The notes under the pieces were generated by a model. That model had not been told where the DNA came from. It did not search any database and worked only from the letters and a program-made list of their open reading frames with translations. Below, piece by piece: positions 44,735 to 47,336 of a stretch of 64,000 nt of DNA; position 1 is the stretch's first letter, and each line of letters opens with the position of its first letter. Source of the stretch: Candidatus Peribacteria bacterium. GTDB lineage: Bacteria; Patescibacteriota; Gracilibacteria; Peribacterales; Peribacteraceae. The translations under genes were made by a program, and so were the position numbers. The stretch covers positions 261,493 through 325,492 of the forward strand of contig JBEPVF010000001.1 of the NCBI GenBank assembly GCA_041691135.1. Direction: 5' to 3'.

Positions 44735-45064
44735 ATGAAAAAAGAAAACAGCTACGTTTATGGGATGACGATTCTCACACATCAGTCCACGGATTATGCG
44801 GTGCTGAGAATTGATGCGCTGCCTGTAGTGCTTGATGCGATTCAGGAAAAGCTGGTGGGCTTCGAAGAACTGGAGATTCTGATACAGAAGACAAAAGAAG
44901 GTCTGGCTCGATATCTACAAGCAAAAGATTCCTGTGTGATCGACGAATTTTCTTCTCATAAAGGACATGAATCAGTCATGAACCTTGAGGATCGTCTGAC
45001 TAGGCTGCGGCAGGGAGAGTTCGATTTACCACCTCAGAAACCAGGGACTCCACGAGCTGATTAA
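44735..45064 (+). CDS. Hypothetical protein
   Basis: Plausible helical ORF whose 3' end overlaps the convergent thrS end by about 65 bp. Confidence 0.4.
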   Translation: MKKENSYVYGMTILTHQSTDYAVLRIDALPVVLDAIQEKLVGFEELEILIQKTKEGLARYLQAKDSCVIDEFSSHKGHESVMNLEDRLTRLRQGEFDLPPQKPGTPRAD

Positions 45065-47336
45065 GCGGCACAGTCGTCTGCTCTTTCGTCTTCACATCAC
45101 GGACAGCCAGCGATTGATCTGTAACTTCTTTGTCGCCGATGACGAGCAGATAGTTGATCTTCTGCTTTTCGCCTTCGCGTACACGCTTGCCGAGTGATTC
45201 GGATGGGTCGAGATACAGCGTGCGAATCCCCTTCTCTTTGAGCTGTTGCTCAACTTGATGCGCGTACCCTTCGTGGGGGCCGGCTACCGGGATCAGTGCG
45301 ACCTGGATGGGTGCAAGCCACAGCGGAAAGTGGCCGGCGAAGTGTTCGATCAAAAACCCAATCAAACGTTCGTGCGTGCTCAGCGGCGCGCGATGGATGC
45401 ACAGCGGAACCTTCTCGCTGCCATCGCTGTCTATGTAGCGCAGTCCTACTTTGCCCGGCACATCGAAGTCGACCTGGTTGGTCGCCAGTGTGAACTCGCG
45501 GCCAATGGCGCTCCAGATTTGCACGTCAATCTTCGGTCCGTAGAAGGCGGCTTCGCCCGGCACTTCGACAAAATTCACATTCGCCCGCTGCATGGCCCCA
45601 CGCACCATCTGCTCTGTCTTCAGCCATAATGCCGATGCATCTACATATTTTTTGCCGAGCTGCGCCGGATCGTGGAGCGACAGGCGCATCACGTATTTAT
45701 CGATGTTGAAAATCTTGAAGTACGTCATGTACAGCCCGATCACCGCATCGAATTCCTGTTCGAACTGCTCCTCGGTGCAGTAGATGTGCGCATCGTTCAT
45801 GCTGAGTGACCGCACGCGCATCAGGCCGAACAGTGCGCCGGAATCCTCGTAGCGGTAACACTGCCCGTACTCGGCGTAGCGAATCGGCAGATCGCGGTAA
45901 CTGCGCGCATTGCTGGCGAATATCTGGTGATGATGCGGACAGTTCATCGGCTTGAGGTAATATTCTTCCTCGCCATCCAGAACCATCGGCGGAAACATCG
46001 ATTCCTTGTAGTGCGCCAAGTGTCCGGTCTGCGCGTACAGTTTTCCCTTGGCAATGTGTGGCGTTTTCACGCGCATGTAGCCGCCTTTATGCTCCATTTC
46101 TTTGGCCAGCTCCTCGATCGCATCCACCATAATCGTCCCCTTGGGTGTCCACAGCGGTAAACCTGGTCCAACCATGTCGCTGAACGTAAAAAGATCCAGC
46201 TCTTTGCCAAGCTTGCGGTGATCACGGCGCTTCGCTTCCTCCATCATAGTGAAGTACGCCTTTAATTCTTCCTTAGACGGGAACGCCGCCACATATAGAC
46301 GAGTCAGCTGTTCGCGCTTCTCGTCGCCACGCCAGTACGCACCGGCAAGATTCACGATCTTGAATGCATCGGCCGGAATCTCCTTCAGATTCTCCACGTG
46401 ACCGCCGCGGCACAGATCCACGAAGGTTTCCTCCCCTTTCGCATCGATGTTCTTGTAGTGCGTCACTTCCTTCACACCGTCGTTCTTCACCAAGTCTTCG
46501 ATCAGCTCCACTTTGAATGGCTGATTCTTCGACTTCCAGAACTTGATCGCCTCATCGGGCGTCAGCGTATCGACGGCAAACGTCTGTCCCTGATTGATGA
46601 TCTTGCGCATCTCTTTTTCGATGGCACCGAAATCAGTATCCGAAATCGGCTCCTTGAACAGGAAATCGTAGTAGCAGCCGTAATCAATCGGCGGACCGAT
46701 GGTGAACTTGGTCTCGGGCCACAGCTTCAGCACCGCTTGAGCCAACACGTGGGCCAGGGAATGGCGGAGCTTGTACAAATCGTCGACCGCCGGTTCCTTT
46801 GCTGCTTTTTTTACAGGTACAGGTAAAGGTTTTGAGTCGGCGTACTGAGCAATGGATTCAATTCGCGGCTTAGCCAAACGCTCATAGTCCTTCGTGCGCA
46901 ATACCATCGAACGATCCAAACGTGCCGCATTAAAGTAGAGCTCGTCATTATTTTTGAGGAGTAGCGGATCGACGATAAGTTCAAGATCGGGATGAAAAGA
47001 GAACGGCAGGATGGTGCCGGACGCACTGCCCGCCAGTTCTTCGGCTATTTGCGGCGTCGCAAACGAAATGTAGCTAGCATCGAACAATGTCTTCAGTGCT
47101 TCCAAATCAACCTTGGCGTCACCGGGCACCACCGCCAACACAAACTTTTTCTCCTTCTTGCCAATTTTAATCATGATCACAATGCACTTAGCCGCCTGCG
47201 ATAATTGGTTGCCCCGGATCGGACTGATGATTTCTGTCCGTCCCTCCGGAATATGATCAATCAACCGGTACTGCGCACCGCCTTGATCGAGAAATTCGAT
47301 CAGCTTGGAATACATGTCGGAGGTAGGATTGGACAT
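45000..47336 (-). CDS. thrS: Threonine--tRNA ligase with N-terminal YbaK/ProXp (YeaK-like) domain
   Basis: RHSLAHVLAQA, DLCRGGH, RDHRKLG, LKPMNCP, YRYE.SG.L.GLMRVR, AAFYGPKID and the anticodon-binding domain. The first ~165 aa resemble E. coli YeaK. Confidence 0.95.
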   Translation of the reverse strand: MSNPTSDMYSKLIEFLDQGGAQYRLIDHIPEGRTEIISPIRGNQLSQAAKCIVIMIKIGKKEKKFVLAVVPGDAKVDLEALKTLFDASYISFATPQIAEELAGSASGTILPFSFHPDLELIVDPLLLKNNDELYFNAARLDRSMVLRTKDYERLAKPRIESIAQYADSKPLPVPVKKAAKEPAVDDLYKLRHSLAHVLAQAVLKLWPETKFTIGPPIDYGCYYDFLFKEPISDTDFGAIEKEMRKIINQGQTFAVDTLTPDEAIKFWKSKNQPFKVELIEDLVKNDGVKEVTHYKNIDAKGEETFVDLCRGGHVENLKEIPADAFKIVNLAGAYWRGDEKREQLTRLYVAAFPSKEELKAYFTMMEEAKRRDHRKLGKELDLFTFSDMVGPGLPLWTPKGTIMVDAIEELAKEMEHKGGYMRVKTPHIAKGKLYAQTGHLAHYKESMFPPMVLDGEEEYYLKPMNCPHHHQIFASNARSYRDLPIRYAEYGQCYRYEDSGALFGLMRVRSLSMNDAHIYCTEEQFEQEFDAVIGLYMTYFKIFNIDKYVMRLSLHDPAQLGKKYVDASALWLKTEQMVRGAMQRANVNFVEVPGEAAFYGPKIDVQIWSAIGREFTLATNQVDFDVPGKVGLRYIDSDGSEKVPLCIHRAPLSTHERLIGFLIEHFAGHFPLWLAPIQVALIPVAGPHEGYAHQVEQQLKEKGIRTLYLDPSESLGKRVREGEKQKINYLLVIGDKEVTDQSLAVRDVKTKEQTTVPLNQLVESLVSEVVNRTLPAAA

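Follow-up and report, generated by a model that had tools for sequence, protein, structure and literature searches.

A gene for a threonyl-tRNA synthetase (ThrRS) preceded, in the same reading frame, by a deacylase domain of the YeaK/ProXp-ST1 family was found in a 64,000-nucleotide stretch of the Candidatus Peribacteria contig JBEPVF010000001.1 (the whole stretch is referred to as the window in the rest of the text). The parts of this fused thrS product are all known, namely ThrRS, its N2 editing domain and INS-family deacylases; one synthetase with two unrelated hydrolytic editing domains was not found described. We propose that the N-terminal domain is a second editing site, acting in cis, that clears threonine analogues, and not serine itself, from tRNA(Thr), a reading for which we regard the chances as even.

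A YeaK-like domain and ThrRS share one reading frame

As originally predicted, the fused gene is one uninterrupted 778-aa open reading frame (ORF), which the ORF list and the translation bear out. The motifs quoted in that prediction (H.PEG, SQAAKCIV, VLAVVPGD, GTILPFSFHPDLELIVDPLL, ELYFNAARLDRSMVL, RHSLAH and DLCRGGH) all occur in the translation, and the Pro/Lys/Ala linker was found at residues 167-180. Pfam analyses of the 778-aa protein returned tRNA_edit (PF04073) at residues 45-154 with 60.0 bits (cut-off 25.5), followed by tRNA_SAD (303-348), tRNA-synt_2b (454-666) and HGTP_anticodon (678-766), while the NCBIfam thrS equivalog TIGR00418 matched residues 191-768 with 618.7 bits (cut-off 383.65). 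Among the six matches to TIGR00418 in its own genome (G000; 1.74 Mb, 35 contigs, 92% complete), the thrS locus alone lies above the cut-off.

In a second assembly (Logan, run X1), positions 46300-47500 fall inside one 18,041-base contig with no difference and no gap, and the break between the domains that the prediction had named as a possible refutation did not appear. This comparison was made between contigs, and X1, the only sequencing run carrying the stretch, may be the one from which the window derives, in which case the agreement is not independent. X1 is a DNA run, and no RNA sequencing run carrying the stretch was listed. Other assemblies contribute a further 65 protein clusters (at 90% identity) with the fused architecture. 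Since the X1 contig is identical and the architecture recurs elsewhere, the junction is not an accident of assembly, and the fusion of the N-terminal domain to ThrRS is confirmed as real.

The N-terminal domain belongs to the INS/YbaK superfamily

Over 154 aa, the N-terminal domain is 42% identical to E. coli YeaK (E = 1e-42, 127 bits; the record is annotated 'yeaK, mischarged aminoacyl-tRNA deacylase'). Matches to YbaK, ProXp-ala and other INS members of the Protein Data Bank (PDB) reach only 16.7-28.7 bits, and no close solved structure was found by sequence, the best being 3op6 (28.7 bits, or 48.8 bits with a family profile). The AlphaFold model of the domain (pLDDT 91, pTM 0.87) gave 37 Foldseek matches in the PDB at E ≤ 0.001; all of those listed are YbaK, ProX, ProXp-ala, ProRS-INS or YbaK-like-domain chains, with TM-scores (by query) of 0.58-0.80. 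Residue K50 pairs with the lysine of E. coli YbaK (2dxa), ProXp-ala (5vxb) and 3op6, and G107...P111 pairs with their G...P loops, the conserved lysine and the GxxxP loop together being what we take to be the catalytic signature of the INS superfamily. The domain is a member of the INS/YbaK superfamily and is YeaK-like, as had been claimed and as the Pfam score and the identity to YeaK support. As judged by alignment, YeaK (ProXp-ST1) is its closest characterised relative in E. coli. PDB entry 2dxa was considered as a possible YeaK structure and was ruled out, its name and alignment (YKTLL, GGISPL) being those of YbaK; it matches the N-terminal domain weakly (E = 0.057).

Many free-standing proteins, 160-195 aa in length, share 66-76% identity with the domain. 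A search for free-standing homologues at E ≤ 0.001 gave 2,691 matches among 2,766 candidates, of which the best 120 were listed, and among the matches listed the hosts are actinomycetes, Chloroflexota, Atribacterota and DPANN archaea. A cysteine beside the conserved lysine (Cys51, within the motif 'AAKC') is present in all 120 of these close members, at a position where E. coli YeaK has alanine. In a cross-domain alignment of 18 sequences (A1), 31 columns are invariant and the window copy keeps all 31. These features place the domain in a very conserved and mostly free-standing clade, which we call FthB-like for reasons given below. The claim that the family is normally free-standing thus holds for most homologues. 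A tree of the domain (FastTree, 294 rows) was poorly resolved, with 120 of its 291 inner branches below 80% support.

The closest characterised relative is probably FthB of Streptomyces cattleya

Protein P0155 of Streptomyces (Streptantibioticus) cattleya is 73% identical to the N-terminal domain over 159 aa. It is encoded at 100% identity on the S. cattleya megaplasmid, between a divergent gene whose product combines serine hydroxymethyltransferase (SHMT) with a class-II aldolase and a gene for an EamA transporter. The combination of SHMT and class-II aldolase is that published for the two-domain 4-fluorothreonine transaldolase (PMC7162832), and the arrangement of fthB and fthC as seen at P0155 has also been published (PMC7162832, PMC7408626). 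Because its neighbours match that arrangement, P0155 is very probably FthB, an INS-family deacylase selective for the hydrolysis of fluorothreonyl-tRNAThr (PMC13149037), which a 2024 review labels 'ProXp-ST1-related' (PMC11295145). When P0155 was searched against chromosome-sized E. coli records at E ≤ 1e-5, yeaK was the sole place matched.

YeaK, which the original prediction had taken as its model, therefore stands as the best E. coli relative of the domain but gives way to the protein at the fthB position of S. cattleya as the closest characterised one. Since the domain is closer to that protein than to YeaK, the substrate of the predicted Ser/Thr-tRNA proofreader would likely shift from serine towards threonine analogues. 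A fluorothreonine-type cluster context was seen in S. cattleya and at two Nocardia brasiliensis loci; no such cluster (transaldolase and EamA exporter) was found around the window thrS, whose neighbours are dnaA and lgt. An FthB-like gene also lies near an EamA gene, a transaldolase-like gene or both in N. brasiliensis (L029, L032), in a Proteobacteria metagenome-assembled genome (MAG; L095) and in Microbispora (L089), where the EamA proteins are 69-77% identical to that of S. cattleya and the transaldolase-like proteins 51-62% identical. These loci look like fluorothreonine-type or related beta-hydroxy-amino-acid clusters.

The synthetase body keeps its own editing site and lacks TGS

Residues 187-769 of the window protein align with chain residues 70-639 of Staphylococcus aureus ThrRS (PDB 1nyq; 521.7 bits), starting just past N1/TGS, and the RHSLAH, DLCRGGH, AGAYWRGD, CPHH, NDAHI and IHR motifs pair with the same motifs in 1nyq. 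Residues H192/H196, D307 and C309/H313 of N2 and residues C466, H517 and H648 are all present. Following the E. coli ThrRS literature, we take H192/H196 and C309/H313 to be the N2 catalytic residues; C466, H517 and H648 presumably bind the zinc of the synthetic site. Of the 66 bacterial-type fusions described below, 65-66 retain the N2 residues and all 66 retain C466, H517 and H648. The prediction that the native editing residues are intact agrees with both the 1nyq alignment and this conservation. The N2 site is specific for serine. Since its residues are retained across the fusions, the appended domain would be a second editing module and not the substitute for a decayed one.

No TGS domain was found in the window protein by Pfam at E ≤ 1. 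A ThrRS was present in all 26 relatives searched. Twelve unfused relatives were examined, and their likely start codons fall 9-16 residues ahead of the 'RHS' motif; upstream of the body the frame has 12-34 residues in each except G308 (166 residues, with no recognisable domain). ThrRS without TGS thus looks like the norm in this family. The original prediction had the N-terminal domain replace TGS; because unfused ThrRS proteins of the same family already lack TGS, the domain is instead an add-on, and one homologue (P0006) combines the appended domain, TGS and N2 in a single protein.

The nearest relative, G301, belongs to the same genus and has a 601-aa thrS product whose body is 86% identical, with the same lgt neighbour and no N-terminal domain. 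DNA homology to G301 starts at about position 46796 (residue 181), three codons after the G301 start codon. The domain was not found at E ≤ 0.001 in G301 (73% complete), G303 or G304, and weak matches of 25-30 bits in G308 and G311 are to another paralogue. A 760-aa frame in G308 was rejected as a further fusion, its 184-aa extension having no Pfam match and the only match to the N-terminal domain in that genome (25 bits) lying elsewhere. In the same relative (L017, positions 3750-4439, minus strand), an IS200-like transposase gene lies between dnaA and thrS, and the thrS frame is extended by about 166 residues.

The domain has been joined to ThrRS in two ways

To survey the fusion, the N-terminal domain was scored against proteins of 427-1362 aa, which gave 97 matches: 66 bacterial-type ThrRS fusions (query included), 26 archaeal-type ThrRS fusions and five others. 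The original prediction had allowed that the architecture might already be common in domain databases, and this turned out half right: 92 of the 97 matches show it in precomputed Pfam architectures, yet it has gone unremarked. In NCBI or JGI records, several of the fusions bear the name 'threonine--tRNA ligase'. Named sources are Peregrinibacteria, Gottesmanbacteria, Amesbacteria and Caldilineaceae for the bacterial type and Woesearchaeota for the archaeal type. Bacterial-type fusions carry the domain at the N-terminus, whereas archaeal-type ones have it internally, at about residues 145-330, after the archaea-specific editing domain (PF08915) and before the core; these two different positions imply at least two independent fusion events. 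Linkers of homologous fusions vary in length and sequence. Among the archaeal-type fusions, one group (L044, L049, L056, L072, L097) has a core nearer to the window's bacterial-type body (33-40% identity) and another (L037, L069, L092) a core nearer to the archaeal core of P0015 (50-86%).

A scan with one genome per species confirmed at least 566 relatives, and the 80 best loci examined comprise 16 bacterial-type fusions, 8 archaeal-type fusions and 56 loci not fused to ThrRS. The bacterial-type loci come from Peribacteria/Peregrinibacteria (10), Gottesmanbacteria (1), Chloroflexota (3) and MAGs labelled Gammaproteobacteria (2), and the archaeal-type loci from Woesearchaeota (3), Micrarchaeota, Bilamarchaeaceae, one unclassified source and two MAGs labelled Methanosarcinales. 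A ThrRS gene was found within the 6-kb flanks of none of the 56 loci not fused to ThrRS, whose recurrent neighbours code for cupins (9, plus 1 fused), EamA (3), FTase-like (3) and decarboxylase-like proteins dependent on pyridoxal phosphate (PLP; 4). The five other fusions join the domain to a PLP decarboxylase (2), to EamA (1) and to class-II aminoacyl-tRNA synthetase-like proteins (2, from Streptomyces and Kitasatospora). These other partners point to the handling of non-canonical amino acids.

Among relatives of this genome the fusion is rare. It was found in 1 of 301 genomes sampled across the phylum at E ≤ 1e-20 (G000 itself), three other genomes of that sample having only free-standing genes 34-37% identical, and in 3 of 401 genomes of the class at E ≤ 1e-30, all in frames of 761-796 aa; within the family, none of the 64 other genomes has it. 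The distribution of the domain on ThrRS is patchy, accessory and resistance-like.

In a tree of the ThrRS body (54 rows: 41 fused, 12 unfused and one cut by a contig end), fused and unfused proteins interleave with at least six changes of state on well-supported branches, and unfused G301 is placed as the sister of the window protein with support of 100%. Sampling was unequal, the fused rows being drawn from billions of proteins and the unfused ones from 20 relatives; ten GTDB-locus rows (mostly duplicates of proteins already in the set), G306 and G310 were left out, as were G321, G317, G031, G320 and G147, at less than 50% identity. Distances between domains and between bodies in 65 fusions are weakly correlated (Mantel r = 0.27, with 0 of 999 permutations as high), the domain distance reaching a plateau near 0.40, and an AU test did not reject a single clade for the N-terminal domains of the window's body clade (P = 0.254). 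We conclude that the module has been repeatedly gained or lost and is dispensable.

Proposed role in clearing threonine analogues

We suggest the following model. The gene would code for the cell's housekeeping ThrRS, in which a flexible linker adds a complete deacylase domain of the FthB-like clade to a TGS-less body made up of N2, core and anticodon-binding domain. The core would charge tRNA(Thr), and the resident N2 site would clear serine, which is smaller than threonine. The appended domain would serve as a second post-transfer editing site in cis, working on a tRNA(Thr) whose acceptor end is bound by that enzyme or by its partner subunit in the dimer, and would remove threonine-like beta-hydroxy amino acids that ThrRS activates and N2 leaves uncleared, of the kind of 4-fluorothreonine, beta-ethynylserine or hydroxynorvaline. 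ThrRS discriminates poorly against larger amino acids that retain the beta-hydroxyl. Fluorothreonine and beta-ethynylserine are both charged by ThrRS and translated (PMC13149037), and the larger hydroxynorvaline is also misactivated by it (PMC3158927). We infer the catalytic activity, the action in cis and the class of substrate. A role in editing threonine analogues is argued for by the 73% identity to P0155, the probable FthB with its selectivity for a gamma-substituted threonine on tRNA(Thr), the intact serine site and the resistance-like distribution, and the link to tRNA(Thr) by the joining of the same domain to ThrRS in two ways (66 bacterial-type and 26 archaeal-type clusters).

Several points weigh against this reading, the first of which concerns the conserved lysine of the superfamily. 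It is present in all 120 close free-standing members and is replaced in 17 of the 92 fused domains: by asparagine ('AANC') in 8 of 65 bacterial-type fusions (P0011, P0016, P0021, P0022, P0031, P0044, P0073 and P0082), and by histidine in 8 and asparagine in 1 of the 27 archaeal-type ones. By ThrRS body, the window protein, whose own copy keeps the lysine, has its closest relatives in several of these asparagine forms. These replacements represent few events and are not phylogenetically independent. They could mean that catalysis has been lost in some lineages, so that fused copies are not always catalytic; they are also compatible with anchoring of the tRNA becoming less necessary once the substrate is brought in by the ThrRS body. 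In support of the proposed role, G107, P111, N136, D141 and S143 are kept in all 65 bacterial-type and all 27 archaeal-type fusions, and by this measure the N-terminal domain appears to be under constraint. Other points against the proposal are that P0155 is identified as FthB through its gene context and not a locus tag; that the domain's probable placement as ST1, and not ST2, draws on similarity to YeaK only; that the domain must be dispensable, being often absent in close relatives; and that no gene for the biosynthesis of a threonine analogue was seen beside the window thrS. In addition, the hydrolytic activity of ProXp-ST1 enzymes on Ser- and Thr-tRNAs is broad and in vitro can extend to Thr-tRNAThr (PMC11295145), and therefore a fused copy could be a backup for serine or could even be harmful.

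We consider it unlikely that the appended domain is a redundant sieve that hydrolyses Ser-tRNAThr as a backup to N2, for example when the N2 cysteine is oxidised. Such a role would suit the 42% identity to YeaK, since YeaK/ProXp-ST1 deacylates Ser-tRNAs including that of tRNAThr (PMC11295145, PMC7373986), and oxidation of the ThrRS editing cysteine leads to serine mistranslation (PMC4041444). However, the domain is much nearer to the FthB-position protein (73%) than to YeaK, and the cysteine that the clade has in place of the YeaK alanine, being invariant and adjacent to the lysine, is itself open to oxidation. Moreover, the Ser-specific sites, whether N2 or the archaeal editing domain, are intact in the fusions, and pure redundancy would therefore be hard to keep under selection.

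We assign a rather low probability to a tethered generalist that would act in trans on serine or threonine mischarged to other tRNAs (Val, Ile, Ala, Lys) and would be fused for co-expression or for the shielding of Thr-tRNAThr by ThrRS. ProXp-ST1 and ProXp-ST2 do accept a broad range of tRNAs, and Thr-tRNAThr is shielded from both by ThrRS (PMC11295145). Against this, wherever the amino acid of a partner synthetase could be identified by Pfam or NCBIfam, the partner is always ThrRS, in two independent architectures; beyond ThrRS, only the class-II (D, K, N) aminoacyl-tRNA synthetase-like protein P0095/P0096, 'ligase-related' according to NCBI, is a partner of synthetase type. The lysine, moreover, is replaced only in copies fused to ThrRS (17 of 92, against 0 of 120 free-standing), which fits delivery by ThrRS even though the events are few and not independent.

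It is improbable that the domain is a non-catalytic appendage, that is, an extra tRNA-binding or regulatory module on a TGS-less synthetase. The absence of TGS from ThrRS in this family and the 17 fused copies without the conserved lysine would be expected of such a module, but in the window copy Lys50 and the GxxxP loop are in place, as are all 31 positions that are invariant in the free-standing enzymes; most relatives also manage with no N-terminal domain at all and thus present no structural gap to fill. That a mis-assembly, frameshift or missed stop codon joined two genes is practically excluded, since nothing was found in its favour other than the possibly shared source of run X1, while the frame is uninterrupted, a second assembler gave an identical junction, 92 of 97 matches from many assemblies show the ThrRS fusion, and two other genomes of the class have fused frames of 761 and 771 aa.

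Editing of threonine analogues in cis, our preferred reading, could be extended to the whole 'AAKC' clade, although we advance this extension only tentatively and doubt it more than we credit it. The clade would then be a widespread third ThrRS sieve against natural mimics of threonine, the fusions of the Candidate Phyla Radiation (CPR) and DPANN would pass one acceptor end among three active sites (synthesis, serine editing and analogue editing), and the loss of the lysine would reflect tethering that takes over the holding of the tRNA end.

Comparison with known editing systems

FthB is the nearest known counterpart of the domain: it falls in the same INS clade, its client is tRNA(Thr), and the 'AAKC', GTILPFSF and YFNAARLDRS motifs are common to P0155, equated with FthB from its context, and the window domain. 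Unlike the window domain, which is covalently joined to ThrRS, it is a free-standing protein of about 163 aa encoded in a fluorothreonine cluster beside a transaldolase and an EamA exporter. E. coli YeaK belongs to the same family and aligns with the N-terminal domain over its full length, but it is free-standing, falls in a different clade (Ala for Cys51, Met for Arg139 and Cys for Thr34) and has serine and threonine on many tRNAs as its reported substrates (PMC11295145). BesG, a deacylase of beta-ethynylserine-tRNA(Thr), has the role that we propose for the domain, the clearing of a threonine analogue that ThrRS does not reject (PMC13149037); it is, in contrast, a free-standing member of the AlaX fold family encoded in a biosynthetic cluster.

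The protist ProXp-ala-ProRS proteins of Plasmodium and trypanosomatids also have a trans-editing domain of the INS superfamily at the N-terminus of a class-II synthetase (PMC11295145). Their ProRS lacks INS, which leaves the fused domain as its only editing site, whereas the window ThrRS keeps an unrelated one of its own, giving two sites per chain. In the 'triple sieve' formed by the INS domain of ProRS and free YbaK, a synthetic site is likewise combined with two hydrolytic sieves for different non-cognate amino acids, and the INS fold is shared; there, however, the third sieve acts in trans on tRNA(Pro), whereas the two sieves of the window protein come from two superfamilies and, in our proposal, both act in cis on ThrRS. 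Compared with canonical bacterial ThrRS (N1/TGS, N2, core and anticodon-binding domain; PDB 1nyq, 1qf6), the body and the editing and zinc motifs are kept, but TGS is missing and an INS-type domain with its linker stands ahead of N2.

According to a 2024 review, members of the INS superfamily are single-domain proteins except for the ProRS insertion, the protist ProXp-ala-ProRS fusion aside (PMC11295145). The original prediction had not recognised the architecture as described, and full-text literature searches, which extended to neither supplements nor two key primary papers, gave no description of a ThrRS-INS fusion. Editing domains set the accuracy with which the genetic code is read. If the extended reading of the 'AAKC' clade is correct, no aminoacyl-tRNA synthetase before the window protein would be known to have two distinct post-transfer editing domains working in cis. 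The fusion may also serve as a natural 'Rosetta stone' that designates ThrRS and tRNA(Thr) as the physiological partner of FthB/YeaK-type deacylases, and it suggests that small-genome scavengers (CPR, DPANN) meet threonine antimetabolites in nature. Together with its 86%-identical unfused sister, the fused enzyme makes a ready pair for asking whether a sieve is needed for amino acids too similar to threonine for a Ser-specific site.

Genomic context and further observations

The coordinates of the fused gene, its parts and its neighbours are given in Table 1.

Table 1. Positions in the window of the fused thrS gene, its parts and the adjoining genes
Feature	Coordinates	Strand	Details
Whole fused thrS	45000..47336	-	Single 778-aa ORF, ATG start, no internal stop
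N-terminal YeaK/ProXp-ST1-family deacylase domain, FthB-like 'AAKC' clade	46839..47336	-	aa 1-166; Pfam PF04073
K50 codon	47187-47189	-	
G107-x-x-x-P111 loop	47004-47018	-	
Pro/Lys/Ala low-complexity linker	46797..46838	-	aa 167-180; from translation
ThrRS N2 (Ser-tRNAThr) editing domain	46287..46796	-	aa 181-350; 1nyq alignment and Pfam tRNA_SAD
N2 HxxxH (H192/H196)	46749-46763	-	
N2 D307-x-C309-x-x-x-H313	46398-46418	-	
Class-II catalytic core	45327..46184	-	about aa 385-670; Pfam tRNA-synt_2b, 132.6 bits; candidate zinc ligands C466, H517, H648
Anticodon-binding domain	45039..45305	-	aa 678-766; Pfam HGTP_anticodon, 78.6 bits
dnaA	47442..48938	-	Directly upstream of thrS; Pfam Bac_DnaA, Bac_DnaA_C, DnaA_N
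lgt-like gene	43655..44578	-	Downstream of thrS; Pfam LGT, 87.2 bits

The lgt-like neighbour, whose product is 307 aa long, is also present in relatives G301, G304 and G308 (307-aa ORFs and DNA homology in L016, L017 and L019). The only other tRNA_edit gene of the genome lies on another contig (C8:27854-28384; L001:1405-1935, plus strand) and codes for a free-standing protein of 176 aa (96.8 bits) with a 'TKNLF' motif, which we take to be typical of ProXp-ala; a gene for a 393-aa Cys-rich repeat protein adjoins it. Elsewhere in the window, positions 16001-18000 have a G+C content of 0.425, compared with about 0.53 in the rest.

Beyond ThrRS, FthB-like domains were seen fused to an EamA transporter, a PLP-dependent decarboxylase, a class-II (D/K/N) aminoacyl-tRNA synthetase-like protein and a cupin (P0094, P0087/P0089, P0095/P0096, P0224 and L061). 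Two Nonomuraea loci (L062, L067) have 350-aa frames whose C-terminal half has no family assignment. At nine loci, mostly of Chloroflexota (L035, L043, L045, L054, L057, L059, L078, L091 and L094), a cupin gene lies directly downstream of a free-standing FthB-like gene.

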